18,204 nt of DNA, from IMG/VR virus record IMGVR_UViG_2737471864_000007, positions 1 to 18,204 of that record. The stretch is one strand, 5' to 3'. Source of the stretch: a virus (taxonomy: Duplodnaviria > Heunggongvirae > Uroviricota > Caudoviricetes). The notes beneath the pieces were generated by a model. The model had not been told where the DNA came from, searched no databases, and was given only the letters and a program-made list of their open reading frames with translations. A program made the position numbers and the translations under genes. This document shows, one piece after another, positions 3,623-18,204 of this stretch; positions within the stretch are counted from its first letter, which is position 1; the number at the start of each line of letters is the position of its first letter.

Positions 3623-3848
3623 TACTTAAAATCCTCTGTAGAATAATGGAATCACTTTTCTTGATGACAGGAGTAACTAACTCCCCAACTAACTCTGCGT
3701 CCTCACGCACTCGCCATAGTCGACCTTGTTTCATTGCCGGTGGACAAAATAAATTCTGCTTAGCATAACGACGCAATGTGGACACACTTGGAGGATTACT
3801 CCTAAATTTTTCCGCAGCCCATTCCTCAAGTGTCAGCATTTGAAGCAT
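3603..3848 (-). CDS. xis: Excisionase (Xis, lambda-like)
   Basis: LTLEEWAAEKF...VSTLRRYAKQNLFCPPAMKQGRLWRV parallels lambda Xis (LTLQEWNARQ...TVRRWVRE..IFPPPVKDGREY). Start taken at the ATG at 3848 (GAGGT about 10 nt upstream); alternative in-frame starts at 3863 and 3839. Overlaps int start. Confidence 0.75.
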   Translation of the reverse strand: MLQMLTLEEWAAEKFRSNPPSVSTLRRYAKQNLFCPPAMKQGRLWRVREDAELVGELVTPVIKKSDSIILQRILSNGSQTT

Positions 3849-3903
3849 TTTTGATAACCTCATTTCTTTTGCTACACAACTATTTCACTAGTTAATTTCG
3901 CTG

Positions 3904-4440: not shown

Positions 4441-4567
4441 TTTGTTCTCCACGTATATGCGCTGCACCGCGCTGAATTTTGGTTAAAGAAAACCCTCGCC
4501 ATCAGGTGATTATTGAGTCAATTATGTTTCCATAAATGCCCCCGCAGGGGCATTTGCAGTAATGAAA

Positions 4568-5392
4568 TCAGGCGTTGAAAGTACCAATAAAGGTTTTTAC
4601 TTTGCTGTCTTTGAATTTTTCAACTAGCAGATCACGAAATTCGTTAGCCATTTCTTCCTGTACTGCTTCCAGCTGAATAATGCGCTGAACCAGTACAGGG
4701 CGATCACCAGTGATAATGCTGAGTCGTAATTTAAACGGACGTTCTTTCAGGCCTTCAAACGGAACGCATTTAAATTCAAATGCCACTGGCATAATGTCTT
4801 TGGTCTTCGCTTCGACAGACTCCATCAGGGAGCGTTTGCCGCTGAAGTCATTGTCTTCAAAATCAGCAGTCTGGTTCGCTTCAATTGTGATTTTACGGAT
4901 CGCTGCAGCCGCTTTGGTTGCCTGAATGGCGTCACCATTAGCATCAAAGCCCACAAGGTAGTCTGCCCAGTCTTCAATCCATTCTGCCAGTGACTTCTGG
5001 GAGTTACGTTCGCCGTTAACAGACAACAGAGCAGAGAACGGGGCTGTCTTTTTCAGTTTGAGAGTGGCGGTGTTATCTGCGTGACCTGGTTCATCAATAG
5101 TACCCAGGTTAAGTACACTGACGGCACGCATATTATCAGCATCGATAAAGCAGCCGGTGCCTTTATCTGCAAGATCTTTAGAATAACGGGTAAAGTCATC
5201 GATGTTGGCAGTGGAAAGCGCACCACGGAAACGGAAGCGATTTAAATTAAATTTTTCCAGATCATGAATGCGGAAATTCTCAGGCAATGCTACAGCATCG
5301 GCACCAATCTTATTGATAATTTCATTAACACCCTGAGCAGAAATAAGGGCATGGATTTGATTAATTGCGGTTGCGTCTAAGTTCTGAGACAT
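4568..5392 (-). CDS. yfdQ: YfdQ-like protein (DUF2303 family), function unknown
   Basis: 274 aa, ATG at 5392 with GAGGA 8 nt upstream. Size and position between yfdP-like and yfdR-like genes match the K-12 CPS-53 order as I recall it; needs BLASTP. Confidence 0.75.
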
Positions 5393-5457
5393 AATAAGTC
5401 CTCACTATATAAAGATATTCAGTGATGAGATAAATAATCAGTTTATTAATAACGATA

Positions 5458-5820
5458 TTAACGACCTGCTGCGCGGAGTTTTCCGTCAGGCTCACCGGCA
5501 AGAGTCAGTAATTGTCCCTGGTCTTCCTGCAGAATAGTCAGGCGACCACCGCGATTGACATACATCGGCGTTTCTGTGGTGTCTTCTTCGGAAATTTTCC
5601 CGCGGTTAGTCGGGCGAACATATGAGAGTTTGTGTTTGATTTTCACACGGTTCTCATCAAATGGTTCGATTTCCAGGTTGAGTGAGACCTTACCTTTGGT
5701 TTTCGTGTTCATCACACCGGAAGCGACTTCACTGAGAACTGCGCCGATTTTGGTTTCAAATACGCCGCCGTCCAGCTCCCCGATAAATGCCTGCACATCA
5801 GTACTGCGTTCGCTAGCCAT
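5458..5820 (-). CDS. yfdP: YfdP-like hypothetical protein
   Basis: 120 aa starting MASERSTDVQAFIGELDGG at the ATG at 5820, with AGGAG 8 nt upstream. The track's 226-aa form extends into the GC-rich ORF-free segment with an Arg/Cys/Pro-rich, non-protein-like translation, so the extension is rejected. Confidence 0.65.
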   Translation of the reverse strand: MASERSTDVQAFIGELDGGVFETKIGAVLSEVASGVMNTKTKGKVSLNLEIEPFDENRVKIKHKLSYVRPTNRGKISEEDTTETPMYVNRGGRLTILQEDQGQLLTLAGEPDGKLRAAGR

Positions 5821-5870
5821 TTTGCTGCTCCTCATCATATCGACCCTGCAAGGCCGATTAGTTTCTCCAC

Positions 5871-6074
5871 AAAACAGAGAAGAACACCTGCGGTGGCAGC
5901 CGCCCGGATGGATTGAGTTATGAGCCCGTCGTCCGGTGATGTTCTTCTCTGTTTTGTAAAAAGGACGGTACCAGCCGGAAGCAAGGGTACAAGCTGGTAC
6001 CGCCAGGACTACACACAGCATAAAGTTGTGGTGCCGGGTGCCTCCCGGTGCCTGGCGAAGGTTGCACACCAGGC
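5871..6074. other. GC-rich ORF-free segment with multiple perfect inverted repeats; candidate structured RNA or MITE-like element
   Basis: 16-bp perfect inverted repeat AAAACAGAGAAGAACA (5871-5886) / TGTTCTTCTCTGTTTT (5940-5955) around a 53-nt GC-rich spacer. 9-bp perfect stem GGTACCAGC (5967-5975) / GCTGGTACC (5993-6001). 6-bp stem GCCTGG (6050-6055) / CCAGGC (6069-6074). No convincing ORF in any frame. Confidence 0.3.
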
Positions 6075-6219
6075 GGGTGGGTATCCACAGAAGGTCGACT
6101 GTCAGCCTCAACCTTAACCCGCGTGCGCTGAGCCGCATTCACCACAACGCTAAGGATTCTCTCTGGTTGAAAATACTTAGCTGTTATGTGCCTGCTTTTA
6201 GCCACATCAGGCGAGGTGG

Positions 6220-6272
6220 ATCTGGTTATTCCCCAACAATAAGGATTCGGTTAATCTGGTTATCCCCAACAA
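6220..6272 (+). repeat. Two direct repeats ATCTGGTTAT(T)CCCCAACAA, 34 bp apart, just upstream of the ORF at 6289
   Basis: Copies at 6220-6239 and 6254-6272. The associated motif TAAGGATTC also occurs twice (6151-6159, 6240-6248), and CTGGTTGA at 6163-6170 is a partial third copy. Confidence 0.6.
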
Positions 6273-6288
6273 CGCAAAAGGAAAAGAA

Positions 6289-6723
6289 ATGTCCGGTAAT
6301 ATCTATACGCTGTACAAATCCCACTGTGAAAATGTTGGAAAGTATCGGGGCATTGAAATCAGTGGGGTAGTGTCATCAGTCGAAATAAGCAAAGTTGAAT
6401 CAAGAGCAACATTACTTACTCTTCTGGACCTTGTCTTACATGAGCACCGGAAGAAATTCGGCACTCCCTATAATCAGTTGAATGGGAAAAAGGCTCTGGT
6501 TCACCTTATTCTGATGAAGCATCACTGGATGCCAAAACAGATTAATGAGATGAAATTTGATGAACTTCTTCTTTCAATTCAGGATGAACTCACGCTTGAT
6601 AAAATAAGCGTAACCGCCCAGAAATTTTTAGATTATCGAGACTGGAGATCACAAATTCATCACTTTGATGATTTTGACGAAAATGAATGGGATCCTAATT
6701 TGTCTGCACAATATCTAAAGTAG
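6289..6723 (+). CDS. Hypothetical protein, 144 aa, acidic C-terminus; AT-rich gene oriented against the leftward early operon
   Basis: ATG at 6289 with AAGGA 7 nt upstream. Protein-like translation with no recognisable motif. 3' end overlaps the convergent small ORF 6695-6901 by 29 nt. Confidence 0.6.
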   Translation: MSGNIYTLYKSHCENVGKYRGIEISGVVSSVEISKVESRATLLTLLDLVLHEHRKKFGTPYNQLNGKKALVHLILMKHHWMPKQINEMKFDELLLSIQDELTLDKISVTAQKFLDYRDWRSQIHHFDDFDENEWDPNLSAQYLK

Positions 6724-6901
6724 CATCCTGTGATAAAACTGTGATTTCCTGATCCAGTTTTTTTAAGGAGCCTATTGTTTCCTGTCGATAAGACAGCACT
6801 TCACGAAGCTGGTTTATAGCTGCCAGCTTCTTTGTCATCCACTCGTAAATTTCCTCATCTGTGTAGCCAGGCGCGACGATTTTTGGTTCTGTTTTGTGCA
6901 T
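6695..6901 (-). CDS. Small hypothetical protein, 68 aa; first gene of the putative leftward (pL-like) operon
   Basis: ATG at 6901 preceded by a strong GAGGAGGTG Shine-Dalgarno 5-6 nt upstream; the track's longer form starts at a TTG. Helical-looking, not Arg-rich, so not an obvious N homolog. Confidence 0.55.
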   Translation of the reverse strand: MHKTEPKIVAPGYTDEEIYEWMTKKLAAINQLREVLSYRQETIGSLKKLDQEITVLSQDATLDIVQTN

Positions 6902-6947
6902 TTCACACCTCCTCAAGTTATCAGTTACTTGTTGATGGGGACCAGAT

Positions 6948-6959
6948 TGTTAAAGAGCT
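6948..6959 (-). promoter_or_regulatory. boxA-like element GCTCTTTAACAA; candidate antitermination (nut-like) site on the leftward transcript
   Basis: Minus-strand 12-mer matches the rrn/lambdoid boxA consensus TGCTCTTTAACAA at 12 of 13 positions. Lies between the OL-like block and the first leftward ORF. No convincing boxB hairpin identified. Confidence 0.4.
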
Positions 6960-6960
6960 A

Positions 6961-6984
6961 AGCGTCCTGTAGGGCGCTTTTTTG
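6961..6984 (+). terminator. Rho-independent terminator (plus strand)
   Basis: AGCGTCC-TGTA-GGGCGCT stem (7 bp, one G-U pair) followed by TTTTTT. The same hairpin on the minus strand has a C-A mismatch and no U-tract, so it is directional. Confidence 0.55.
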
Positions 6985-7058
6985 TTGCTAACGAATCATC
7001 CTGGACTTCATATGCCCCAGGCGGCTACTTCGTGGGCGTCCTGCCTGTTCGTTGTTTT

Positions 7059-7120
7059 AACACCTTTAAGTTGTAATTTAGTTGTGGCTTTGAATATTGT
7101 CAACAACTTTATGTGGTTTG
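7059..7120. promoter_or_regulatory. OL-like operator/promoter region
   Basis: Block AACACCTTTAAGTTGTAATTTAGTTGTGG (7059-7087) plus ACAACTTTATGT (7104-7115). Both recur in the cI-cro intergenic region; contains AAGTTGT/ACAACTT inverted half-sites. Confidence 0.5.
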
Positions 7121-7166
7121 AACGAGTAGCCAAGGAGTGCAAGGATTATCAAAAAAAGGAGGTTGT

Positions 7167-8057
7167 ATGGAAGACGCGCTTTACGCTTTTAATTACACAC
7201 AGAACCGGGACAAGTTATTTGCTAACTTGATTAGCATCATTGATGGAATCATTGCAGATGGAGTTGTCCGTGAAGAGGAGGTTCTTTACTTAGATACATG
7301 GTTACTTGAAGCAAAGCAGATTATCAATAATGGAGTTATAAAAAGTCTATCAGCACGGGTGTCGGATATTCTTGCGGATGGAATAATCACATCAGAAGAA
7401 CGTGATGACCTTAAAAATAGCCTTCTCCAAATACAGAGGGAAATTCTTGATATCCCTGAAATTGATTTTTACTCCAAGGATGTAGATGTCCATTTACTTA
7501 ATGGACTATGTAAAGGATTAATTGCTGATCGGAACTTAACTCAAGAAGAAATAAGATATCTTAATTGGTGGCTTGAGCAAAATGGAGCTTTGAAGAACAA
7601 CTACCCAGGAAAAAAACTTTATGCACTTGTAAAGGAAATTCTTAAAGATGGGGTTATTACTGAAGATGAGAGTTTAACTCTACATAAGGCATTAGTAGAC
7701 TTCACAGGATGTGACTTGGAAAGTGGGGTGGTGGATGGTTTGGCGACCAGGCTGCCTATTGATGTAGGGGCTTCGATAGAGTTAGAGGGTAAAACCTATT
7801 GTCTTACAGGCACTTTTGTTGCAGGAAAGAGAGCCGTAGTTGAAAATTTGATTAAAAATGCTGGTGGGAACATCAGTAGTGGAATTACTCAAAAGTTGGA
7901 TTTTTTAGTAATTGGGACGCTTTCCTCCCGTGATTGGAAATTCTCAAGTCACGGAAGGAAGATCGAAAAAGCTATATCTTATAGGGATGATAATGGTGCA
8001 AAACTTAAAATTATTTCTGAAGAAATGCTTTTCGATGCATTACCAAGTTCGCGATGA
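7167..8057 (+). CDS. TerB-like helical-repeat protein with C-terminal BRCT domain; AT-rich cargo gene between OL and cI
   Basis: ATG at 7167 with AGGAGG 4 nt upstream; the track's form starts at a GTG at 7137. Four repeats of the pattern (A/K)DG.I(T/R).EE...L (IADGVVREEEVLYL, LADGIITSEERDDL, IADRNLTQEEIRYL, LKDGVITEDESLTL). C-terminal GKTYCLTGTF...GGNISSGITQKLDFLVIG...GRKIEKA...GAKLKIISEEMLFDAL resembles the LigA-type BRCT fold. Convergent 18-nt overlap with the cI 3' end. Confidence 0.75.
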   Translation: MEDALYAFNYTQNRDKLFANLISIIDGIIADGVVREEEVLYLDTWLLEAKQIINNGVIKSLSARVSDILADGIITSEERDDLKNSLLQIQREILDIPEIDFYSKDVDVHLLNGLCKGLIADRNLTQEEIRYLNWWLEQNGALKNNYPGKKLYALVKEILKDGVITEDESLTLHKALVDFTGCDLESGVVDGLATRLPIDVGASIELEGKTYCLTGTFVAGKRAVVENLIKNAGGNISSGITQKLDFLVIGTLSSRDWKFSSHGRKIEKAISYRDDNGAKLKIISEEMLFDALPSSR

Positions 8058-8726
8058 CCAGAATACCCTACCTATAACATGAATTCTGGCTCGTCTATCT
8101 TCAAAGGTGAGTATTTCATCTGGGTACTCATCTTTGTTGAAGCTTCTAAGAATCAAGCCACCGTCAGGTAAGTTGATAAGTATTTTAACCCTTAGCAATA
8201 CACCATCTCGTACGGCATAAAGATCGCCATCACGAATAGGAACGGTTTGAGAAATATCAACGGCAACAAGATCTCCATTATTGAGAACCGGTAATAAACT
8301 GTTCCCCCATATTTTTACGATCTTGGCATTAGATGCACATACGCCAGATTTTCTCAAATCTGCTCTTCTTAACGGAAACCAGTCAATAGCTGATTCAACT
8401 ATTTCAGCCAGACATCCGTTACCTGCCGATAACTCGACATCTAAAACAGGAATGTTTACGAAAATATCGGGGTCTAATGCGGTGCTTTCTGCTTCTTTTA
8501 CAACAAGATCAGGTATGGATGCGTTATCTTCAATACCAAGTTGTAACCACTTTTGTGATACACCTAAAACTTTTGCAATTTCTTTAATTTTGCGCGGTTG
8601 TAGAGTTTCGCCATTCTCTATTTTGGCTACAGATTGTTGTGAAAGTCCAATTTTTTCAGCTAGTTGAGCTTGGCTCATGCCAGCTTTCTCTCTACCTATC
8701 TTTAATCGTTCTGCCAGTGTTTTCAC
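8040..8726 (-). CDS. cI: CI-like prophage repressor (XRE-type HTH + LexA/S24 peptidase-like autocleavage domain)
   Basis: 228 aa. N-terminal HTH (LAERLKIGREKAGMSQAQLAEKIGLSQQSVAKIENGE) and C-terminal S24-like region (GNSLLP...). GTG start at 8726 with a GAGAGGGA SD-like sequence. Divergent from cro. Confidence 0.85.
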   Translation of the reverse strand: MKTLAERLKIGREKAGMSQAQLAEKIGLSQQSVAKIENGETLQPRKIKEIAKVLGVSQKWLQLGIEDNASIPDLVVKEAESTALDPDIFVNIPVLDVELSAGNGCLAEIVESAIDWFPLRRADLRKSGVCASNAKIVKIWGNSLLPVLNNGDLVAVDISQTVPIRDGDLYAVRDGVLLRVKILINLPDGGLILRSFNKDEYPDEILTFEDRRARIHVIGRVFWSSRTW

Positions 8727-8755
8727 AACATATCCCTCTCTTTTTTGATGAGGTT

Positions 8756-8850
8756 ACAACTTTATGTTTTAGCTTTCCAACACCTAAAAGTTGTGATAAA
8801 AGTTGTTAATGTTGTATTCTTGCAACTCGTAACAACTTAACTACCAAAAA
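8756..8850. promoter_or_regulatory. OR-like operator/promoter region between cI and cro
   Basis: ACAACTTTATGT (8756-8767) and block AACACCTAAAAGTTGTGATAAAAGTTGT (8779-8806) match the OL-like region; a further ACAACTT at 8832-8838. Divergent cI and cro starts flank it. Confidence 0.55.
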
Positions 8851-8861
8851 AGGAGAAAGCT

Positions 8862-9110
8862 ATGACACCTGAGCAATTAGCCTTATCGGAGGCAATCGCT
8901 CTGGCTGGTGGTCAATCAGAATTGGCTCGGAAGCTCACAGCCAGCAGCGGTCATTTAGTAAAGCAACAACATGTCTGGAACTGGTTGAACAGAGAAAAGC
9001 GTCCCCCTGCAAAGCTCTCGATATTCATTGAAAAGACCACTGGCATATCAAAAGAAAAATTACGTCCAGATATTTTTCAAAAGATTAAAGATTCATCAGC
9101 TGAAAAGTAA
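8862..9110 (+). CDS. cro: Cro-like HTH regulator (YdaS/Cro family)
   Basis: 82 aa, ATG at 8862 with AAGGAG upstream. HTH-like GGQSELARKLTASSGHLVKQQ. Position immediately right of OR and divergent from cI. Confidence 0.75.
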   Translation: MTPEQLALSEAIALAGGQSELARKLTASSGHLVKQQHVWNWLNREKRPPAKLSIFIEKTTGISKEKLRPDIFQKIKDSSAEK

Positions 9111-9132
9111 CCACAGTTTTAAGGAGATAGCC

Positions 9133-9690
9133 GTGGGTAAGCATCACTGGAAAATAGAAAAACAGCCTGAGTGGTACGTGAAAGCTGTCAGAAAAACTAT
9201 CGCGGCGTTGCCGGGTGGTTACGCTGAAGCCGCTGACTGGCTGGATGTAACAGAGAACGCTTTATTCAACCGCCTTCGTGCAGATGGCGATCAGATTTTT
9301 CCGCTGGGATGGGCAATGGTTTTACAGCGTGCTGGTGGCACTCACTTCATTGCTGATGCTGTGGCGCAGTCTGCAAATGGCGTATTTGTGTCTCTTCCTG
9401 ACGTCGAGGATGTGGACAACGCCGATATTAACCAGCGTCTGCTGGAAGTCATTGAACAGATCGGCAGTTATTCAAAACAGATTCGTTCAGCAATCGAAGA
9501 CGGTGTAGTGGAACCGCATGAGAAGACAGCAATTAACGACGAGCTGTATCTCTCAATTTCGAAGCTGCAGGAGCATGCAGCACTGGTCTACAAAATCTTT
9601 TGCATTTCAGAAAGTAATGACGCCCGCGAGTGTGCAGCTCCGGGCGTCGTGGCGTCGATTGCTTCTGGTTGTGGAGAAACTAACGCATGA
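9133..9690 (+). CDS. CII-like regulatory protein (YdaT-like family)
   Basis: 185 aa from the GTG at 9133 (AAGGAG 6 nt upstream). The track's longer form starts inside cro and is rejected. Position after cro matches the Rac-type racR/ydaS/ydaT arrangement as I recall it; family assignment tentative. Confidence 0.6.
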
Positions 9691-10025
9691 ACAGTTTAAC
9701 AACACACTACCGTCGCTCGCAACTGATTGCGCTTCCTGTACCGGGTGGAAAAGCGAAGGTGGAATATTGCTATGCAGTGAATGTACCAGGTGACAGGGAA
9801 ATTGTAACCCACAGCTTTGCAGAGTGGGCTGTGGGTGATTTCAACCGGCAGAAGGAGACAGTCCTTTGCGACAAGTTAACCGCTGGTTCAAAGATCACTA
9901 CGGAGTGCCCGTCAGAGTCATTCGTTGGGAGCCGGAAACACAACGGGTTATCTACCTCCGCGAAGGTTATGAGCATGAATGCTTCAGTCCGCTCGAACAG
10001 TTTCGTCGTAAATTCAGGGAAATAG
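9687..10025 (+). CDS. Hypothetical protein; possibly frameshifted or overlapped by an alternative-frame ORF (9866-10045)
   Basis: ATG overlaps the cII-like stop (ATGA). The C-terminal third of the translation looks non-protein-like, while a second frame (TTG at 9866 after AGGAG, stop at 10043-10045) reads ...[58 protein letters not shown]. Confidence 0.35.
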
Positions 10026-10034
10026 AGGTCGGTC

Positions 10035-10304
10035 ATGAGCACTAAATTAACCGGCTATGTATGGGATGGTTGCGCTGTATCAGGCATGAAGTTATCCAGT
10101 GTGGCAATTATGGCCCGCCTGGCTGATTTCAGTAATGACGAAGGTGTGTGCTGGCCATCAATTGAAACCATTGCCCGTCAGATTGGCGCGGGGATGAGTA
10201 CCGTCAGAACGGCTACCGTGGCATTTGAAGAGAAGTATGGCTCCCAGCTGGAGCTGATATTTCGTTTTATCGATCGTGCGCTGGCAATAGGCGTACTGGC
10301 GTAA
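10035..10304 (+). CDS. Short HTH protein resembling the N-terminal domain of phage/plasmid replication initiators (HTH_36-like); probable remnant of the replication module
   Basis: 89 aa. KLSSVAIMARLADFSNDEGVCWPSIETIARQIGAGMSTVRTA matches the typical pattern of this winged-helix class (...ALADHANDDG.CWPS.ETLA...G.S.RTV.RA). Ends directly before the Q-like gene. Confidence 0.55.
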   Translation: MSTKLTGYVWDGCAVSGMKLSSVAIMARLADFSNDEGVCWPSIETIARQIGAGMSTVRTATVAFEEKYGSQLELIFRFIDRALAIGVLA

Positions 10305-10317
10305 GTGGAGACGCAAA

Positions 10318-10896
10318 ATGATTAATCCTTCCGAAGTTGGTAAATCCGGGGAAATGGCACGACTACGTACACTGGAAAGTGTATGGATACAGGGCAAACT
10401 GCGTATGTGGGGGCGCTGGTCATTCATCGGCGGCGGCTCAGGCGGCAATATGTTTAACCAGTTGCTGGCCTCCGGGAAAATCACCAAGACAGCCATCAAT
10501 GACGCTTTACGTCGCATGAAGAAGTCAGGCCTGACAAAACCAGAGCTCGAAGCGTTCTTTCGTGAAATTATCGATGGCAAAAATAAGACAGGCATTTCGT
10601 TCTGCTCAGATGATGAGGGTGTATGCATTGATGGCGTTATCGCGGCTGTGCTGATCTCAAATGGTCATAACGGATTGTTTGATGTGCTACTGGACAGATA
10701 CCGCTATCGCAAGAGCAAACGTCTCATGGCAGAGCAACTTCAAAAGCGCCATCCAGAATGGTGCTACATGACCTGCCGCCGCCGAATTGATTCCTGGCTA
10801 AGTTTGGCAGAATTCATGCTTTACGCACCAATGTGTGATGCATTCGGCACAAATAGCAGCAGATTTAAGTTGCAATGTGAGCCAGGAGGTGCTTAA
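10318..10896 (+). CDS. Putative late-gene antiterminator (Q-like) with Cys pairs
   Basis: 192 aa. Position immediately upstream of a terminator and the lysis cassette. Two Cys pairs (CSDDEGVC, CYMTC) are compatible with a zinc-binding Q-type protein. Assigned by position and architecture, not by recognised homology. Confidence 0.5.
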   Translation: MINPSEVGKSGEMARLRTLESVWIQGKLRMWGRWSFIGGGSGGNMFNQLLASGKITKTAINDALRRMKKSGLTKPELEAFFREIIDGKNKTGISFCSDDEGVCIDGVIAAVLISNGHNGLFDVLLDRYRYRKSKRLMAEQLQKRHPEWCYMTCRRRIDSWLSLAEFMLYAPMCDAFGTNSSRFKLQCEPGGA

Positions 10897-10946
10897 ATTG
10901 TGTTACGCTCGGGACGCAAAAGCGAACAGAGCAACAAACATTAAGA

Positions 10947-10970
10947 ACCCGCCAGCGTGCGGGTTTTTTG
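10947..10970 (+). terminator. Rho-independent terminator downstream of the Q-like gene (tR'-like)
   Basis: ACCCGC-CAGCGT-GCGGGT stem followed by TTTTTT. Confidence 0.6.
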
Positions 10971-11009
10971 TTATCATTACCTTTTAAACTTCTAATGGAA
11001 GGTAATGAT

Positions 11010-11582
11010 ATGTGGTTAGGGATTCCTTTTATCTATGTTCAGGAACGGCTGGCAGACACAATTAGCATCAGTAAAATACCATCTATTTCTATAGAATCTT
11101 CATTCTCCTCCGAAACGATTATAGCCGCATTTATTAGTGGATTGGTTCCAGCACTGATATCTTTGTATGTGATTAGACAAAATAACGAGTCTGTCCGATA
11201 TCAACAAAAGCAAGAGAATAAAAGACATTATTCTGCGCATTTAAGGGTGGTAGTTAGCGAGTATGCATACCAACTTAATAAAGTTAAAGAGATACATGCC
11301 GAATGGGTTTCTGTTAGCACAACAATGATCCAATATAAGCTAACAAGCTTAGAAGAAAAAATGTCTGAGGCTCTATTAGAACTGGAAAGATTTAAAGTTA
11401 GCTTGTTAATTTCTATTCCTGATGATGAAGATGGTGCATTGTTTAAGAAATCAATAAATACCATCTCAGAAAAGCTATCTTCATTAATTAAGGGGAGGCA
11501 TATATCAATGGTTGATGGAATGGGATGGGCTGGCCTTTATATGTCATTCATTTCAGATGCTAATAAGTATCTAAATAAATAA
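11010..11582 (+). CDS. AT-rich moron: membrane-anchored helical protein, function unknown
   Basis: ATG at 11010 with GGAAGG about 7 nt upstream; alternative in-frame ATG at 10995; the track's form uses a TTG at 10968 inside the terminator. One predicted TM helix (IIAAFISGLVPALISLYVI) followed by a charged helical region. Flanked by terminators on both sides. Confidence 0.6.
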   Translation: MWLGIPFIYVQERLADTISISKIPSISIESSFSSETIIAAFISGLVPALISLYVIRQNNESVRYQQKQENKRHYSAHLRVVVSEYAYQLNKVKEIHAEWVSVSTTMIQYKLTSLEEKMSEALLELERFKVSLLISIPDDEDGALFKKSINTISEKLSSLIKGRHISMVDGMGWAGLYMSFISDANKYLNK

Positions 11583-11604
11583 AATATATTTTATTAAAAT
11601 ATCA

Positions 11605-11633
11605 AAAGCCACTTAATTGTGGCTTTTTGTTTT
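11605..11633 (+). terminator. Rho-independent terminator downstream of the moron
   Basis: AGCCAC-TTAATT-GTGGCT stem followed by TTTTT G TTTT. Confidence 0.6.
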
Positions 11634-11674
11634 CCCTCTTTTTGAGAGGACTCACAGCAATAAGAGGGGGCTAA

Positions 11675-12070
11675 ATGTCCGATCCTGTTTCTGGCACTAC
11701 GGTTGCCGCTGGTGGCCTTATGGGAGCCAGTGTTTTTGGTATCGCAACTGGTATTGATTATGGCGTGGTGTTTGGCGCTTTCGCAGGAGCTGTGTTCTAC
11801 GTAGCGACAGCAGCAAACATCAGTAGGATGAAGTTGGTTGGCTATTTCGTGACATCGTTTATTGTCGGCGTTCTTGGCGCTGGGCTTGTTGGTTCGTACC
11901 TTGCCAAATGGACAGGCTACAGCGACAGGCCACTTGATGCTCTCGGCGCAGTGGCAGTAGCTGCGTTGGCCATCAAACTTCTTACCTTCATCAACAGTCA
12001 GGATCTAGGAAGCCTGTTCAGTATGCTTTCGCGATTGCGTGGAGGAGGGACCAGCAATGGTAACAAGTGA
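11675..12070 (+). CDS. Putative holin (multi-TM small membrane protein)
   Basis: 131 aa, Gly/Ala-rich hydrophobic segments consistent with 3-4 TM helices. AAGAGGGGG SD upstream. First gene of the lysis cassette. Confidence 0.65.
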   Translation: MSDPVSGTTVAAGGLMGASVFGIATGIDYGVVFGAFAGAVFYVATAANISRMKLVGYFVTSFIVGVLGAGLVGSYLAKWTGYSDRPLDALGAVAVAALAIKLLTFINSQDLGSLFSMLSRLRGGGTSNGNK

Positions 12071-12338
12071 TCCTTCAGCGATGATCAATGCGGGTATTTG
12101 CGCGGTCATTGTAATTGCTCTGATGTTTTACCAACGTGGCGGTGCCAGACATCGCCCGATAGTTTCTCTTCTCGCTTATTTCACGGTGCTGGTTTATGCC
12201 AGCATCCCGTTCCGCTATCTGTTCGGCCTCTACCAGGAATCACACTGGCTGGTGGTCATCGTTAACATCCTGATATGCGCCGCCGTGCTATGGGCTCGGG
12301 GAAACGTGGCGCGTCTTATTGATGCTCTGAGGCACTAA
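12057..12338 (+). CDS. Second lysis-cassette membrane protein (holin/antiholin-like)
   Basis: About 93 aa from the ATG at 12057 (GGAGGAGGGA SD 6 nt upstream); the track's form starts at a GTG at 12039. Three hydrophobic segments. Overlaps the holin stop and the endolysin start. Confidence 0.55.
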   Translation: MVTSDPSAMINAGICAVIVIALMFYQRGGARHRPIVSLLAYFTVLVYASIPFRYLFGLYQESHWLVVIVNILICAAVLWARGNVARLIDALRH

Positions 12339-12952
12339 TGAACCAATCACAATTTCAACAGGCGGCTGTTATTAGCGCCGGGTTAGCTGCGCGCTGGTTT
12401 CCGCACATTGATGCGGCGATGAAGGAATTCGGCATTACAGCACCAGCGGATCAGGCAATGTTTATCGCTCAGGTAGGCCATGAGTCGATGGGGTTTAGCG
12501 CCGTAGTTGAAAATTTTAACTACACACCATCTGCGCTGGTGGCGACGTTCGGAAAGAGGATCACACAGCAGCAGGCTGATGCCCTTGGCAGAACATCCGG
12601 ACATGCAGCTCGTCAGGATGCTATTGCCAATCTGGTGTATAGCAACCGACTGGGTAACAAAGCACCCGGTGATGGCTGGAAATATCGTGGTAGAGGATTA
12701 ATTCAAATCACTGGCCTCCATAATTATCGCATCTGTGGCGCGGAGCTGAAGTTAGATCTGGTGACTTCACCTGAACAACTTGAACAGGAACTACAGGCCG
12801 CGCGCTCAGCTGCATGGTTCTACACCTCTAAAGGCTGCATGATCTACGGTGCCGATATTAATCGTGTTACGCGTATCATTAACGGCGGTCTGAACGGTAT
12901 TGAGGATCGTAAAGTCCGATACAACAAGGCGCGGGCGGCGCTGCTGGTATGA
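12338..12952 (+). CDS. Endolysin, glycoside hydrolase family 19 (chitinase-like lysozyme)
   Basis: 204 aa. GH19-type motifs FIAQVGHESMGF...NF.Y...YRGRGLIQITGLHNY. Start overlaps the upstream stop (TAATG). Confidence 0.8.
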   Translation: MNQSQFQQAAVISAGLAARWFPHIDAAMKEFGITAPADQAMFIAQVGHESMGFSAVVENFNYTPSALVATFGKRITQQQADALGRTSGHAARQDAIANLVYSNRLGNKAPGDGWKYRGRGLIQITGLHNYRICGAELKLDLVTSPEQLEQELQAARSAAWFYTSKGCMIYGADINRVTRIINGGLNGIEDRKVRYNKARAALLV

Positions 12953-13341
12953 AGATGAGTTATTGGGCGCTCATTTTAACGTTTATTGCTTGTGTTGCTG
13001 GTGGTCTTGTCTGGTCAGCGAATCACTATCATGGAAAGTTTCTGGAGGAGCAGAAGCGTGCTGACGCTGCGGAACAGCGAGCTGATTCTACTGAAGCTAT
13101 CACCGCGAATGTCCTGCGAACTATGGCAATAACGAACATCATTCAGGAGGCGAATCAACATGCAAAACAGCAGATCGCACTGGAGTCACAGAGAACCCAG
13201 GAAGATATCAAAGTGGCTATTGCGAATGATGATTGCGCTTCACGTCCTGTGCCTGCTACCGCTGCTGACCGGTTGCGGAAGTACGCGGACAGTTTACGTG
13301 AGCGATCCGGTGGCACCCCTGCCAGCCAGCCTGACTTCTGA
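12949..13341 (+). CDS. Rz-like inner-membrane spanin (i-spanin)
   Basis: 130 aa. N-terminal TM (WALILTFIACVAGGLVW) followed by a charged coiled-coil-like region. Start overlaps the endolysin stop (ATGA). Confidence 0.7.
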   Translation: MKMSYWALILTFIACVAGGLVWSANHYHGKFLEEQKRADAAEQRADSTEAITANVLRTMAITNIIQEANQHAKQQIALESQRTQEDIKVAIANDDCASRPVPATAADRLRKYADSLRERSGGTPASQPDF

Positions 13342-13498
13342 TACTCCAGTACCGTTTATACCCAATCCGCTGACGTATGGTACCAGTCTGGAGTTGAATG
13401 TTGCTCTATTGTCAGCCTTGGGACAATGTAATTTTGATAAAACTGGAATCAGAAATATTGAATCACGGCGCGCTATTTTGCATTCGAAAGACAAATAG
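13226..13498 (+). CDS. Rz1-like outer-membrane lipoprotein spanin (o-spanin), overlapping the 3' part of the Rz-like gene in another frame
   Basis: Lipobox LLTGC after a short signal peptide (MMIALHVLCLLPLLTGC). Pro-rich mature region. Starts inside the Rz-like gene and extends past its stop. Exact start (13226 or 13229) uncertain. Confidence 0.6.
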   Translation: MMIALHVLCLLPLLTGCGSTRTVYVSDPVAPLPASLTSDTPVPFIPNPLTYGTSLELNVALLSALGQCNFDKTGIRNIESRRAILHSKDK

Positions 13499-13866
13499 CT
13501 CGAGTTATATTTTTCATTATCGTTGCGAATGCTCCTAATAAAGCTGTGTATTATGGTAATTTTATAAAGCCTATGGGTTTAAGTTCAGATGCTAGCGTTT
13601 TTATAGCGTAATGTAGCAGCTTACATAAAATATGCATCGTGATTAACTATTAGGCCAACCTTTTGGACCAATATGAAAGTGGAAGTTTATACAAATCGTT
13701 TGTCGATGATTAAACATGTGTCTAGTAGCGCTAGTCATGAACAGGTTTATTACGTATCATTTTGTGTAGATTATCGAGAGTACAACTAGTAGAGCAGCTA
13801 ATCTTTAGATAGTGCCAGTGATGTTCACTTGCGATAAACTAACCTTTTCATTCAGTGGAGGTTATT

Positions 13867-14301
13867 ATGTGGCATACATTACTTAACTGGCCTTGGGGAA
13901 CTGTGTGGTCAGCTGTATCGGCTTTAGGTTCAATTGTAACTGTTACATTAGGTTTTTGGGCAATGAATGTTTGGCGGCGACAGGAGGCTCTGAAGGCCAA
14001 AATGGCTCTGAAAATGGCAGTGGCTGATTATTCAAATGCATTATCACAACTACCTTTATCTCTTAGTCGTAATGTTCGTATTGAAAAAAGGGCCGAGCTA
14101 CGAGAGTTAAATCATAAATTAAATGCTGTTAATAATGCTTTTTTGATATGCGAACATATGTTGGAAAAATACCCACGTGTAAACAGCGGTTGTCGTTCTT
14201 TATCTGTTGCCCACAAAGAATATATTAGAATGAGAGATAATAGTATTCAGGCGAAACATATTTGTCATAATATTCTTTCAGAGCAGTTTGTATTCAAATG
14301 A
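13867..14301 (+). CDS. AT-rich moron: membrane-anchored helical protein, function unknown
   Basis: About 144 aa from the ATG at 13867 (GGAGG 6 nt upstream). N-terminal TM (WSAVSALGSIVTVTLGFWAMNVW) then a helical, Lys/Arg-rich region. Preceded by about 360 bp of AT-rich non-coding DNA. Confidence 0.55.
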   Translation: MWHTLLNWPWGTVWSAVSALGSIVTVTLGFWAMNVWRRQEALKAKMALKMAVADYSNALSQLPLSLSRNVRIEKRAELRELNHKLNAVNNAFLICEHMLEKYPRVNSGCRSLSVAHKEYIRMRDNSIQAKHICHNILSEQFVFK

Positions 14302-14428
14302 AAATGAACGATTGGTATTTACTTGCCGTTTATTCATTGGATTGAAAAGTCTATTTAACAAACCGTGTTAAAGCGGTTTCTGATTGCAGTTATGGTTAGA
14401 TATTTAACGAAAACTACAGGGATAATAG

Positions 14429-14779
14429 ATGCCTCCACGAACCCCAAAAGCCTGCCGCGTTCGCGGCTGCCGCCATACCACGACTGACCCGTCAGGCTAT
14501 TGCGAAAGCCACAAAAGCGAAGGCTGGAAGCAATATAAGCCAGGCCAGTCCCGACACCAGCGCGGTTATGGTTCTAAGTGGGACGTTATCCGCGCGCGTG
14601 TGCTGAAGCGTGACAAAGGCCTGTGCCAGTTGTGCCTGCGTGCCGGTGTGGTGCGCGAGGCGAAAACCGTTGACCACATCATCCCTAAAGCGCATGGCGG
14701 CTCTGATGCCGACAGTAATCTGCAGAGTCTGTGCTGGCTGTGTCATAAGGCGAAGACGGCCCGTGAACGGCTGAAGTAA
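14429..14779 (+). CDS. HNH endonuclease (phage terminase-associated)
   Basis: 116 aa. Cys pairs (CRVRGC...C.SH) and the HNH core DHIIPKAHGGSDADSNLQSLCWLCH. Located immediately upstream of terS, as in HK97-like cos phages. Confidence 0.85.
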   Translation: MPPRTPKACRVRGCRHTTTDPSGYCESHKSEGWKQYKPGQSRHQRGYGSKWDVIRARVLKRDKGLCQLCLRAGVVREAKTVDHIIPKAHGGSDADSNLQSLCWLCHKAKTARERLK

Positions 14780-14805
14780 GAACCAGTTCCCACTGCCAGA
14801 GGGGA

Positions 14806-14866
14806 GGGGCGGGTCAAATCCCTGTGACCTGACGTCTTCCGGACTGCCCGCCCCATCGTTTTTTTA
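14806..14866 (+). other. GC-rich long-range stem plus T-tract between HNH and terS; candidate cos-region element or terminator
   Basis: GGGGCGGG (14806-14813) pairs with CCCGCCCC (14847-14854), followed by ATCG and a run of seven T. Confidence 0.3.
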
Positions 14867-14904
14867 TACCCGCGAAAAATGAAATTTAACCAGGAGTGCC
14901 GCAT

Positions 14905-15399
14905 ATGGCTGGAACGGCGGGGCGTTCCGGGCGTCGCCCCAAGCCAACGGCGCGCAAGGCGCTGGCCGGAAACCCCGGCAAGCGAGCCCTGAATAAAGAT
15001 GAACCTGTTTTTACGCCCATCAAAGGTGTTGAGCCACCGGAGTGGTTCGCTGAAGAAGATCTCCCTCTCGCCACGATCATGTGGCAACTGACAACCAAAG
15101 AACTCTGCGGTCAGGGCCTGCTGTGCGTGACTGACCTCGCGGTGCTTGAGCGGTGGTGCGTGGCCTACGAGTTCTGGCGACGTGCCGTGAAAAATATTGC
15201 CAGACAGGGCAACACCATCACCGGTGCAATGGGCGGTATGGTCAAAAATCCGGAGCTGACCGCCAAAAAAGAACAGGAGTCCGAGATGAGCAGTACGGGG
15301 GCAATGCTCGGACTCGACCCCAGCAGCCGCCAGCGTCTGATTGGCCTGGCGGGGAAGAAGAAAGCCACTAACCCGTTTCTGAAAATTATCGAATCATGA
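14905..15399 (+). CDS. terS: Terminase small subunit (P27-like family)
   Basis: About 164 aa from the ATG at 14905 (CAGGAG upstream); the track's form starts at a GTG at 14896. Basic N-terminus. Stop overlaps the terL start (ATGA). Confidence 0.75.
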
Positions 15400-17129
15400 G
15401 CCGGAAATCTTACCCCAACGTAAATGCTGCAAATCAGTATGCCCGGGATGTCGTGCGCGGAAAGATTATTGCCTGCCAGTTTGTGATTCAGGCCTGCCAG
15501 CGCCATCTTGATGACCTGATGGCGGAAAAAAGTAAGTCGTTTCGTTACCGCTTCGACAAGGACCTGGCTGAACGGGCCGCCAAATTTATTCAGCTGTTGC
15601 CGCACACCAAGGGTGAGTGGGCATTTAAACGGATGCCCATCACGCTGGAGCCGTGGCAGCTATTTGTGATCTGCTGTGCGTTTGGCTGGGTCAATAAAGG
15701 CACCCGGTTGCGCCGCTTCCGGGAGGTGTATACCGAAATTCCCCGTAAGAACGGCAAATCGGCAATCTCTGCCGGTGTTGCCCTGTATTGTTTTGCCTGT
15801 GATAACGAGTTCGGCGCGGAAGTGTATTCCGGTGCCACGACGGAGAAACAGGCGTGGGAAGTCTTTCGTCCGGCACGACTGATGTGTAAACGCACACCCA
15901 TGCTGACGGAAGCGTTCGGGATTGAGGTTAACGCCTCAAACATGAACCGTCCGGAGGATGGTGCGCGGTTTGAACCGCTGATCGGTAACCCCGGTGATGG
16001 TTCATCACCCCACTGTGCCGTGGTGGATGAATATCACGAGCACGCCACAGATGCGCTTTACACCACGATGCTTACCGGGATGGGGGCGCGACGCCAGCCA
16101 CTGATGTGGGCCATTACCACCGCCGGGTACAACATTGAGGGGCCGTGCTACGACAAACGGCGGGAAGTCATCGAGATGCTCAACGGCTCGGTGCCAAACG
16201 ATGAACTGTTCGGGATCATCTATACCGTTGATGAAGGTGACGACTGGACCGACCCGCAGGTGCTGGAAAAAGCCAATCCAAATATTGGCGTGTCGGTTTA
16301 TCGCGAATTTTTGTTAAGTCAGCAGCAGCGTGCGAAAAATAACGCCCGTCTGGCAAACGTCTTTAAAACAAAACACCTCAATATCTGGGTGTCGGCGCGT
16401 TCGGCGTATTTCAACCTGGTGAGCTGGCAGAGCTGCGAGGATAAATCACTGACCCTTGAGCAGTTCGAGGGGCAGCCGTGCATTCTGGCCTTTGACCTGG
16501 CGCGTAAGCTGGATATGAACAGCATGGCGCGACTTTATACCCGCGAGATTGACGGTAAAACGCATTACTACAGTGTGGCCCCGCGTTTCTGGGTACCGTA
16601 TGACACGGTGTACAGCGTCGAGAAAAATGAAGATCGCCGGACAGCCGAACGCTTTCAGAAATGGGTGGAAATGGGCGTTCTGACCGTTACCGATGGTGCG
16701 GAGGTGGATTATCGCTACATCCTCGAAGAGGCCAAAGCGGCGAACAAAATCAGCCCGGTCAGTGAGTCACCCATCGACCCCTTCGGGGCGACCGGGCTGT
16801 CACATGACCTTGCTGATGAAGACCTGAACCCCGTCACCATCATTCAGAACTACACCAACATGTCCGATCCGATGAAAGAGCTGGAAGCGGCGATTGAATC
16901 GGGGCGCTTTCATCATGACGGCAATCCCATCATGACCTGGTGTATCGGCAACGTGGTCGGCAAAACCATTCCGGGTAACGATGATGTGGTGAAGCCCGTC
17001 AAGGAGCAGGCGGAAAACAAAATCGATGGTGCAGTTGCGCTGATTATGGCGGTTGGCAGAGCCATGCTGTACGAGAAAGAAGACACGCTGTCTGATCACA
17101 TTGAGTCCTACGGGATCCGCTCGCTTTAA
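15396..17129 (+). CDS. terL: Terminase large subunit (ATPase/nuclease)
   Basis: 577 aa. Walker A-like GKS context ([12 protein letters not shown]) and Walker B-like hydrophobic-DE (AVVDEYHEH). Size and position after terS. Confidence 0.85.
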
Positions 17130-17140
17130 CTGAGGTAATT

Positions 17141-17323
17141 ATGATCATGCTGATTCTCGCGCCTCTGGTGGGCGTGCTGGGTGCGCTTTTGCTGGCGTAT
17201 GGTGCCTGGCTGATTTATCCCCCGGCGGGTTTTGTTGTTGCCGGGGCGCTGTGCCTGTTCTGGTCGTGGCTGGTGGCGCGATATCTCGACCGTACACAGT
17301 CGTCTGTCGGCGGAGGTAAATAG
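17141..17323 (+). CDS. Small two-TM membrane protein, hypothetical
   Basis: 60 aa. GAGGT SD 4 nt upstream of the ATG. Two hydrophobic helices. Sits at the apparent junction between the terminase and tail genes. Confidence 0.45.
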
Positions 17324-17389
17324 TGTTCTTTTCGGGATTATTTCAACGAAAAAGTGACGCACCGGTGACCACGCCAGCAGAGCTGGCGG

Positions 17390-17872
17390 ATGACCGAACA
17401 ACAGACCCTGCTGTCTCATGGCGTGGCAACGGCGTATGTCGAAAGCGGGGTACTGCGCATTCAGCGTGATGTCACCACGTACAGGAAAAACGCTTACGGG
17501 GTTGCGGATAACAGCTACCTCGACAGTGAGACACTGCATACCAGCGCGTATGTACTGCGCAAACTGAAATCCGTCATTACCAGTAAGTACGGGCGTCACA
17601 AGCTTGCCAGTGACGGTACCCGCTTTGGTCCCGGTCAGGCGATTGTCACCCCGGCGGTGATCAAAGGGGAACTGCTGGCAACCTACCGTCAGCTCGAGCG
17701 TGCGGGGATCGTGGAAAACTACGAACTGTTCAAGCAGTACCTGGTTGTGGAGCGTGATGCCAGCGATCCGAACCGCCTGAACACGCTGTTCCCGCCTGAC
17801 TATGTTAACCAGTTGCGTGTCTTTGCCGTGGTTAACCAGTTCCGTCTTCAGTATTCAGAGGAGTCTGCATAA
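17390..17872 (+). CDS. Phage structural protein, possibly a C-terminal fragment of a contractile-tail sheath protein
   Basis: 160 aa. No strong SD. In-frame stops upstream leave no room for the N-terminal two-thirds of a sheath. Followed directly by a tail-tube-like gene. Family assignment tentative. Confidence 0.4.
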   Translation: MTEQQTLLSHGVATAYVESGVLRIQRDVTTYRKNAYGVADNSYLDSETLHTSAYVLRKLKSVITSKYGRHKLASDGTRFGPGQAIVTPAVIKGELLATYRQLERAGIVENYELFKQYLVVERDASDPNRLNTLFPPDYVNQLRVFAVVNQFRLQYSEESA

Positions 17873-18204
17873 TGGCCCGTATCGGGGGAACCTGTTATTT
17901 CAAAATTGACGGTCAGCAGCTATCGCTGACCGGCGGCATTGAGGTGCCCATGAACAGGACGGTCAATGATGACATCATCGGCCTGGACGGTTCAGTGGAC
18001 CGCAAGGAAACTCACCGTGCGCCTTATGTCAAAGGGACCTTCAAGGTGCCGAAGAATTTTCCGGTGAGCAAAATCACCTCGTCTGATGAGATGACCATCA
18101 CTGCCGAGCTGGCGAACGGTCAGGTCTATGTACTGTCGTCTGCCTGGCTGCACGGCGAAGCGAACCATAATGCCGAAGAAGGCACGTGTAGATTCAATCT
18201 GTCA
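17873..18204 (+). CDS. Putative phage tail tube protein (5' partial; continues beyond window end)
   Basis: ATG at 17873 with GAGGAG 8 nt upstream, overlapping the upstream stop. Translation MARIGGTCYFKIDGQQLSLTGGIEVPMNRTV... is open to the window end. Tail-tube call is by pattern and position. Confidence 0.45.

Follow-up and report, generated by a model that had tools for sequence, protein, structure and literature searches.

A portal-to-sheath deletion junction in a probably defective e14/SfV-type prophage

Phages of the SfV type constitute a natural hybrid, in which an HK97-type terminase, portal, protease and capsid (Peptidase_S78, Phage_capsid) are combined with a Mu-type tail, the genes of which encode Tail_tube (PF10618), Mu Gp45/Gp46/Gp48 and Baseplate_J. 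The late genes of this family are arranged in the order HNH, terS, terL, ymfR, portal, protease, capsid, connector, closure, terminator, sheath and tube. Members of the serotype-converting SfV group of Shigella/E. coli, as well as Salmonella ST64B and 118970_sal3, possess the complete head and neck module, together with a sheath of ~498 residues. The cryptic prophage e14 of E. coli K-12, which resides at the icd locus, harbours intE, xisE, ymfK, ymfL, ymfM, oweE/aaaE (ymfN), ymfR, beeE and jayE.

The DNA analyzed here, referred to as the window, is a stretch of 18,204 nucleotides (positions 1 to 18,204 of IMG/VR record IMGVR_UViG_2737471864_000007), which belongs to this family based on nucleotide similarity and on colinearity on both flanks (97-99% to E. 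coli prophages). The window lacks both the full head and neck module and the ~498-aa sheath, while outside the absent block its gene order is the same as that of SfV, SfI, SfII, SfIV, ST64B and 118970_sal3. To the left of this block, ST64B and 118970_sal3 exhibit 94-99% nucleotide identity to the window's terL-ymfR-portal start, and to the right SfI, SfII, SfIV, SfV and vB_EcoM-720R4 exhibit 97.5-99.4% identity to its sheath 3' part and tube gene.

On the left flank HNH, terS, terL and ymfR are all present in the canonical order of the family, and the region from the portal to sheath codon 338 is absent. The terminase small subunit, of the P27/Terminase_4 family (14896..15399, + strand; Pfam PF05119, E=2.4e-21; phrog_83, E=2.2e-60), is intact, as is the 577-aa large subunit TerL (15396..17129, +; Pfam TerL_ATPase and TerL_nuclease; phrog_9, E=1.5e-197). 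The next gene (17141..17323, +) encodes a 60-aa two-TM membrane protein of the ymfR family, as indicated by phrog_502 'membrane protein' (E=2.5e-28) and by a hydropathy profile with two hydrophobic segments, at residues ~2-24 and ~29-46; intact relatives and K-12 e14 have a gene labelled ymfR at this position. Coordinates, profile match and hydropathy agree with the first-pass annotation, which had described terL as ending at 17129 and being followed by a 60-aa ORF with two TM segments. NCBIfam, at the thresholds used, returned no family matches for ymfR, nor for the sheath fragment and partial tube protein described below.

The ymfR gene is followed by a portal gene remnant (17323..17392, +), consisting of a GTG start and the first 22 codons (17323-17388), which is colinear with the portal start of the relative L003 (25562-25631) up to window position 17392. 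In this family terL is naturally followed by ymfR and the portal start, and ymfR lies outside the scar. Beyond these 22 portal codons no portal, protease, scaffold or capsid gene was found in the window, in keeping with the earlier observation that terL is not followed by portal or capsid genes, save for this stump. A protein identical to the window's TerL occurs in 769 blocks of the assembly collection, and the order terL, ymfR, portal, protease and capsid, through to sheath and tube, was encountered in all ten of the contexts listed among these 769 blocks. At least 80% of the left flank was found in 1,092 of 5,426 complete E. coli genomes, among which the end of terL lies near the start of the tube gene in a single genome, with a different junction. 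An 'attR' is annotated by the portal start in KU927493.2; this record aligns there with the intact relative colinearly and without gaps, and the label is no evidence of a recombination site.

The deletion junction is located at 17389..17392 and consists of a 4-bp microhomology, GATG, which occurs in the portal as well as in the sheath parental sequence. For every relative compared across it (SfI/SfII/SfIV/SfV, ST64B, 118970_sal3 and phiP27, and E. coli 2c3, XH993, L015, L017 and L018), the left alignment stops at 17392 while the right one begins at 17389, and in a three-way alignment the identity switches exactly at GATG. The flanks are colinear with those of intact relatives, at 97-99% nucleotide identity on both sides, and the block absent from the window corresponds to L003 positions 25632-31850, i.e., 6,219 bp. 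The first-pass annotation had favoured an internal deletion, with a junction somewhere between about 17130 and 17390; the colinear flanks and the missing 6,219 bp uphold the deletion, and a junction is indeed present, though it is not spread over that interval but confined to four positions at its extreme right edge.

In intact relatives ten genes lie between the two flanks, from the portal to the full sheath. According to the L003 annotation, the window has lost the portal beyond 22 codons, together with the prohead protease and the major capsid protein. Also gone are a 66-aa gene, the genes for the head-tail connector, for head closure and for a 168-aa protein of the neck, the tail terminator, DUF2635 and residues 1-338 of the sheath. 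The joint connects portal codon 23 to sheath codon 338/339 out of frame, both genes being cut internally, and the translation across it yields a 48-aa chimeric ORF (17323-17469, +), in which the portal frame continues out of frame into sheath DNA. An exact look-up of this junction-specific ORF returned no record, and those of the 160-aa ORF described below and of TerL yielded other contexts only. A 157-aa ORF on the opposite strand (17126-17599, -), which also spans the joint, had no PHROG match and was dismissed as an antisense artefact.

To the right of the joint, a tail sheath remnant (17390..17872, +) encodes 160 residues that correspond to residues 339-498 of an intact 498-aa Mu/SfV-type tail sheath with 99% identity, and thus to codons 339-498 of 498. 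The Phage_sheath_1C profile (PF17482) is matched at positions 2-104 of 104 (E=1.1e-22), the C-terminal domain therefore being present, while only the last 30 positions of Phage_sheath_1 are matched, below threshold. Matches to phrog_165 (positions 340-493 of 493, E=1.4e-76) and to a solved 495-aa tail sheath (PDB 9khy, residues 343-494, E=5e-37) cover the same C-terminal part. Sheaths of this lineage (~498 aa) possess a subtilisin-like domain, a domain II and a C-terminal domain (PF04984, PF17481 and PF17482), a set which is not complete in the 160-aa ORF. Profile search and alignment thus corroborate the initial suggestion that only the C-terminal part of a sheath is encoded, and alignment to the full sheath places the truncation point at residue 339 of 498. 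The adjoining tail tube gene (17872..18204, +), of which the first 111 codons are present before it is cut by the window end, matches PF10618 (positions 1-110 of 117, E=6.9e-30) and phrog_185 (E=1e-39) and is gap-free relative to the tube genes of the relatives, in agreement with its earlier, tentative identification as tail-tube-like.

The 160-aa ORF also matches phrog_11048, a 157-position 'tail sheath' family. It was nevertheless rejected as a true short family, because, where the identical ORF occurs elsewhere, it is the part of a full-length sheath gene downstream of an A5-to-A4 frameshift, an IS insertion or a deletion; full-length membership of a small family, which the first-pass annotation had named as an argument against truncation, is thus only seemingly borne out. 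Sheath proteins of ~157 aa would also suit a natural mosaic joint, previously considered equally likely, according to which a functional phage has siphovirus-like packaging genes beside a myovirus-like tail, with its head genes elsewhere or provided in trans, and the family is truly an HK97-type head/Mu-type tail hybrid. However, the head module is located between terL and the sheath in every intact relative, and head genes lie 3' of terL in the ten listed contexts of the identical TerL. Furthermore, the joint leaves 22 codons of the portal and resumes, out of frame, at codon 339 of the sheath, the neck genes and the tail terminator have been lost as well, and the short 'sheath' ORFs elsewhere stem from the disruptions listed above. 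The joint itself, located inside two unrelated genes with 4 bp in common and without recurrence in the collections searched, does not have the characteristics of a mosaic boundary, and a functional mosaic phage is accordingly extremely unlikely.

The start of the 160-aa ORF is the internal Met339 of the sheath, and its ATG has a weak Shine-Dalgarno sequence (-4.2 kcal/mol), while that of the portal start is strong (duplex energy -10.8 kcal/mol). The ORF is probably a pseudogene fragment, and is most likely silent and not expressed. The strong ribosome-binding site of the portal has been retained and, with the sheath DNA joined out of frame, should drive the synthesis of a 48-aa nonsense peptide. 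Neither the sheath fragment nor terL carries inactivating mutations, which suggests that the deletion is recent or that some constraint acts on the remnants. Sheath C-termini identical to the 160-aa sequence occur elsewhere, and identical 160-aa ORFs are found in many genomes.

The C-terminal domain of the sheath bears a C-terminal arm that normally inserts into neighbouring subunits. Conceivably, the retained domain, or the strongly initiated 48-aa portal-derived peptide, might be produced from the late operon and, as a poison subunit, interfere with the tail or portal assembly of superinfecting SfV-like phages, in which case the remnant would be kept as an anti-phage device beside the Shosta cargo of the element. 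The absence of inactivating mutations from the fragment and the many genomes with identical 160-aa ORFs are compatible with such a role, while the weak ribosome-binding site, the uniqueness of the joint and the varied nature of the other disruptions argue against it and for plain decay; a poison subunit is thus regarded as very doubtful.

A second deletion scar is present in the same element as an 89-aa in-frame chimera (10035..10304, +), which blastn and junction alignment resolved into the N-terminus of a replication initiator (~60 codons) and the last 29 codons of a DUF968/HNH gene. PHROG matches concur, residues 1-66 corresponding to replication-initiator N-termini and residues 57-89 to an HNH/DUF968 C-terminus. 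The junction of this scar, a microhomology-type deletion, lies at 10210-10215, and, compared with L003, 4,339 bp of the replication region are absent. The element still carries an integrase with a lambda-type arm-binding domain (2495-3622), a repressor, the Q antiterminator, a lysis cassette (two holins, an endolysin and a spanin) and the terminase, and the Shosta defence cargo adjoins the integrase.

Retention of the lysis cassette, the terminase and at least the tube gene, with head genes absent, is also what a domesticated tail machine without a head (an R-type tailocin) or a helper-dependent satellite keeping terminase and tail genes might display. Yet a contractile tailocin needs an intact sheath, tube, terminator and baseplate; of these, the terminator is deleted here and the sheath begins only at residue 339, while the baseplate region is located beyond the window. 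The replication genes are deleted as well, and no satellite architecture with terminase and tail genes but no capsid-related genes is known. Such a tail machine or satellite is the least probable of the alternatives considered, with next to no likelihood.

Comparison with e14, taken from the MG1655 record, revealed 99.93% identity over 1.4 kb (window 15993-17392, i.e., the 3' part of terL, ymfR and the portal start) and 98.9% identity over the ymfL-ymfM-replication start region, while the integrases are of the same intE type with 87% nucleotide identity. Window positions 1-6222 are 99.8% identical to a segment of strain 2c3 beginning 150 bp past icd, which suggests that the first 6.2 kb of the window share the chromosomal neighbourhood of e14, icd itself being outside the window. 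In both elements defence cargo lies between attachment site and integrase, namely Shosta in the window and ymfD, ymfE and lit in e14. Furthermore, both are defective by two internal deletions, one of which begins in the replication-initiator gene and the other in the portal gene, with distinct endpoints: in e14 the deletions extend from the replication gene to the middle of terL and from portal nucleotide ~408 to baseplate J, whereas in the window they extend from the replication gene to the 3' end of DUF968 and from portal nucleotide 70 to sheath codon 339. The window consequently keeps Q, the lysis cassette, HNH, terS, the full terL, the C-terminus of the sheath and the tube, none of which is present in e14.

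An independent portal-into-sheath deletion in the same family, which likewise brought terL-ymfR beside the tube gene, is found in the prophage of E. coli XH993 (NZ_CP019361.1). There, an in-frame joint between portal residue ~137 and sheath residue ~241 has created a 393-aa fusion annotated as 'phage portal protein', and the microhomology is TGGT, within a 10-bp stretch that is identical between the XH993 and L003 sheaths. Analogous scars are found in e14, XH993, G4/9 and 160-11H1; terL-to-baseplate-J joints occur in further strains, as do independent head-module deletions in other E. coli genomes. A portal-side deletion site, ...GTGTGGTA, is common to e14 and XH993.

The exact junction 30-mer, CAGCAGAGCTGGCGGATGACCGAACAACAG, had no match in GTDB representative genomes, JGI metagenomes or IMG/VR, its 18-mer core had none in the 21 loci examined, and no contiguous match across the joint was found in the 5,426 complete E. 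coli genomes. The deletion allele itself is therefore new, its exact junction being found in none of the collections searched, while the kind of event is already known. Absence from these collections would also be expected of an assembly artefact, i.e., a collapsed or chimeric contig derived from a real genome with an intact head module. Assemblers, however, join on long overlaps rather than on a 4-bp GATG between unrelated genes, and the second, independent scar in the same element, as well as the analogous scars elsewhere, fit real decay; an artefact is thus very unlikely.

The deletion may alternatively have arisen by illegitimate recombination between two SfV-like prophage copies (on the same chromosome, on sister chromosomes or involving a superinfecting phage), possibly as part of a larger rearrangement and not as a simple intramolecular deletion. 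Carrier E. coli genomes hold this sequence at a median of 2 places and up to 8, and the best flank matches are in different records, K-12 e14 on the left (99.93%) and, e.g., Res13-Sevr-PER07-33 on the right (99.8%). No single record matches both flanks that well, and no database prophage matching both at >99.5% was found. The family is, however, highly mosaic, so that differing best matches 6 kb apart are expected within one phage, and on either side of the joint the genes are ordered and oriented as in a single prophage. Exchange between copies is considered unlikely, though not to the degree of an artefact, and the outcome would be the same either way, namely a head-less element with a truncated sheath.

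The junction, the absence of the genes, their truncation at the joint and the second scar are direct observations, and colinear flanks, a missing internal block and truncated genes at the joint are the features by which a prophage that became defective through internal deletion is recognized. The window very probably represents such an e14/SfV-type prophage, from which the head-module block was lost by internal deletion in the course of ordinary decay. Under this interpretation it would constitute the left two thirds of a temperate element resident at the icd integration locus of an E. coli-type chromosome, in which a single illegitimate, homology-independent recombination joined GATG at portal codon 23 to GATG at sheath codons 338/339, likely through replication slippage or microhomology-mediated end joining. 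This event would have removed 6,219 bp, encompassing the head, neck and tail-terminator genes and two thirds of the sheath, and a separate 4.3-kb deletion would have removed the replication region. The two deletions together are predicted to leave the element unable to replicate, to build capsids or to assemble a contractile tail. Given the loss of the portal, protease and capsid genes, of those for neck and terminator, of most of the sheath and of the replication genes, infectious particles would not be expected from it. As the late-gene order of the family is broken by the deletion, the element is a defective derivative and not a complete member of the family.

For annotation purposes, the 160-aa ORF should be labelled as a sheath pseudogene fragment without its N-terminus and the 48-aa ORF as a portal fragment without its C-terminus, while the element as a whole is to be called a defective e14-like prophage and not a phage with an unusual gene order. 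The deletion scar opens no new biological question; it is a further example of how microhomology-mediated deletion erodes prophages, dated-looking in that its scars are clean and its remnants unmutated. The element represents a less eroded and independently decayed relative of K-12 e14, probably at the same locus and with a different defence cargo, and as such it could help in reconstructing how e14-type elements decay yet keep their defence genes.

The terminase pair in the right-hand part of the window is complete: terS (14896-15399, + strand) matches Terminase_4 and phrog_83, while terL (15396-17129, +) matches the TerL_ATPase and TerL_nuclease profiles as well as phrog_9 (E = 1.5e-197). 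These genes are followed by a 60-residue ORF with two hydrophobic segments (17141-17323, +), which matches the ‘membrane protein’ profile phrog_502 (E = 2.5e-28) and represents ymfR, by a 160-residue ORF (17390-17872, +) with a Phage_sheath_1C domain (E = 1.1e-22), and by a tail-tube ORF (+), which matches positions 1-110 of the 117 of Tail_tube PF10618 (E = 6.9e-30) and runs past the window end. The start of the tube ORF at 17872 overlaps the end of the preceding ORF as taATG, as read from the ORF map and sequence. Of the 493 positions in the tail-sheath profile phrog_165, the 160-residue protein covers only 340-493 (E = 1.4e-76), and only residues 343-494 of the solved 495-residue tail sheath 9khy align to it. 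The first-pass annotation had reported a packaging module running directly into tail genes, with what looked like only the C-terminal part of a sheath ahead of a tube-like gene; the Pfam and PHROG searches and the 9khy alignment agree with this, the packaging pair being complete and the sheath reduced to its C-terminal third, and the profile matches support the family assignments of both tail proteins, which had been tentative. Alignment to a full sheath places the truncation point at residue 339 of 498, the ATG at 17390 being the internal Met339 and the ORF corresponding to sheath residues 339-498 with 99% identity.

When positions 16600-18204 were compared with phage genomes by megablast, the matches fell into two clean halves. 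Salmonella phages ST64B and 118970_sal3 and E. coli phage phiP27 match until position 17392 (terL, membrane protein and portal start), while from position 17389 (3' part of the sheath gene, and tube) the matches are to SfI, SfII, SfIV, SfV and several myoviruses of E. coli; the identical break was observed against every E. coli prophage compared. The joint was defined relative to the icd-linked prophage of E. coli strain 2c3 (L003), the best overall relative, with 99.8% identity over the first 6.2 kb of the window. The left flank stops at L003 position 25631, within the portal gene and 70 nt past its start, and the right flank begins at position 31847, within the sheath gene; in a three-way alignment the switch from portal to sheath identity falls within the tetranucleotide GATG (17389-17392), common to both parents. 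An internal deletion, which had been proposed from the sequence, is thus confirmed, with 6,219 bp absent relative to the intact relative. According to the L003 annotation, the lost block comprises the portal gene except for 22 codons, the HK97-family prohead protease, the major capsid protein, a 66-residue protein, the head-tail connector, the head-closure protein, a 168-residue protein, the tail terminator, DUF2635 and sheath codons 1-338.

The other origin proposed, a mosaic joint between siphovirus and myovirus modules, did not hold. The Pfam content of relatives shows that the family naturally combines an HK97-like head module with a Mu-like tail module, which explains the earlier impression; this hybridity is ancestral and is not the source of the joint.

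A joint that lies inside two unrelated genes with 4 bp in common is the mark of illegitimate, microhomology-mediated recombination, which usually proceeds by replication slippage or by end joining following a break. Judging from the junction anatomy, such recombination at GATG would have formed the present joint, and the microhomology is probably meaningful, since the usual chance-overlap formula predicts that no more than about 1-2% of blunt joints formed at random would show an overlap of at least 4 bp. The joint contains no IS element, att site or long repeat. The 118970_sal3 record marks an ‘attR’ close to the portal start, which is irrelevant, the region aligning colinearly and without gaps to the intact relative. 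Recombination between two prophage copies would fit the observation that no single record exceeds 99.5% identity to both flanks, and genomes often carry two or more copies, but its end product would be identical to that of a simple deletion, and we consider this route very improbable. Of note, the portal-derived side carries a quasi-palindrome, CCAGC-AGA-GCTGG (17374-17386), 3 nt upstream of the joint, which might favour slippage or occlude the ATG at 17390.

The 60-residue ymfR gene does not belong to the scar, as it is conserved between terL and portal in intact relatives and in the cryptic prophage e14 of E. coli K-12. The assembly collection lists a protein identical to the window TerL in 769 blocks, and all ten contexts shown continue with the 60-residue gene, portal, Peptidase_S78 protease, Phage_capsid, connector, head-closure, tail terminator, DUF2635 and tail genes. 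A full 498-residue sheath followed by the tube is present in eight of the ten, the exceptions being L020, which has no sheath gene call, and L012, in which a sheath cut to 383 residues (17201-18352) directly precedes a DNA-circularisation gene, the deletion having taken out the sheath C-terminus, tube, assembly chaperone and tape measure. Of 5,426 complete E. coli genomes, 1,092 cover the left flank to 80% or more, yet only strain XH993 among these 5,426 has the terL end and tube start within ~1 kb, and its joint differs from that of the window, being an in-frame fusion of portal (residues 1-~137) to sheath (~241-498). The window therefore shows a rare derivative of an arrangement that is very common in its intact form. 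The junction 30-mer had no match in GTDB representative genomes, JGI metagenomes or IMG/VR.

At the scar, the GTG start of the portal gene (17323) and 22 codons are retained, and translation of this stump continues out of frame into sheath DNA, yielding a 48-residue chimeric ORF, for which a look-up found none on record. The portal start is preceded by GGAGG, a strong Shine-Dalgarno sequence (-10.8 kcal/mol against the anti-SD), while that of the sheath ATG is weak (-4.2 on the same scale) and badly spaced, so that the 48-residue nonsense peptide is the likely product, with the sheath fragment probably not expressed. Having lost the genes for portal, protease, capsid, neck and terminator along with two thirds of the sheath, the element is predicted to be unable to make heads or contractile tails.

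It had been envisaged that the 160-residue protein might be a full-length member of a small family, and phrog_11048 was considered as such a short-sheath family; the identical ORFs in other genomes are instead gene calls downstream of a frameshift, IS insertion or N-terminal deletion. In those genomes the sheath gene of these prophages has been disrupted repeatedly: by an A5-to-A4 frameshift at sheath nt 869, common to three assemblies (L004, L005 and L006, at ~9856), by an IS3-type insertion at sheath nt 988-991 (L008, 8765-10000) and by an N-terminal deletion (L007, 9907-10000). Each leaves the identical ORF from Met339, which accounts for its separate protein entry in 120 assembly-collection blocks, and phrog_11048 is probably derived from such fragments.

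A second scar, at 10210-10215, jumps from L003 position 12127 to 16461, deleting 4,339 bp of the replication and nin-like region. The lost segment held perC-like yfdN, dam, a lexA-family gene, rusA and kilA-N, as well as the bulk of the replication-initiator gene and almost the whole of DUF968. It lies in an in-frame chimeric ORF of 89 residues (10035-10304, +) that joins ~60 initial replication-initiator codons to the DUF968/HNH gene at its final 29 codons; its residues 1-66 give matches to the N-termini of replication initiators, and its residues 57-89 to the HNH/DUF968 C-terminus. An assembly artefact at the first joint is unlikely, as the overlap is only 4 bp and two clean deletions in one element argue for real prophage decay. 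A tailocin and a satellite were also considered; both fail, as sheath and terminator are destroyed and replication genes lost.

Two genes ahead of the integrase (1-2429), probably on its icd side, match the Shosta anti-phage system, namely ShosA (DprA-like, E = 5e-80) and ShosT (PRTase region, E = 1.8e-14), the latter in this case having a HAD domain at its N-terminus and a zinc ribbon at its C-terminus. They fill the cargo slot in which e14 has ymfD, ymfE and lit, and are a possible reason for the remnant's retention. Separately, a mosaic segment absent from strain 2c3 (~6222-9122) holds a 306-residue ORF (7137-8057, +) that ends in a BRCT domain (Pfam, E = 1.4e-6) and weakly matches the PADLOC candidate PDC-S48 (E = 2.7e-7). 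It lies tail-to-tail with a CI-like repressor gene, whose 3' end it overlaps by 18 bp.

Prophage e14 lies at what is probably also the locus of the window element, with 99.93% identity to the window over 15993-17392 and 98.9% over 9132-10218, and likewise has two scars: oweE/aaaE, annotated as ‘chimeric replication protein/phage terminase YmfN’, and beeE/jayE, which joins portal to baseplate J. Their endpoints differ from those of the window, which is thus an e14-type element eroded independently and less extensively. The independent deletions of e14 (L022 12136-12139) and the XH993 prophage (L002 ~8827-8836) have left ends 1-4 nt apart in the portal gene, corresponding to L003 ~25966-25973 at ...GTGTGGT(A), and unlike right ends (baseplate J and sheath nt ~719, respectively); the proximity of the left ends may reflect a deletion hotspot or mere chance. 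Furthermore, in a spread sample of E. coli genomes, strains G4/9 and 160-11H1 have terL joined directly to baseplate J, and this assortment of joints shows that head-module loss is recurrent in the e14-like family. The element is a case of ordinary prophage decay; e14-like cryptic prophages are already known, and what is added here is a deletion allele of that kind.
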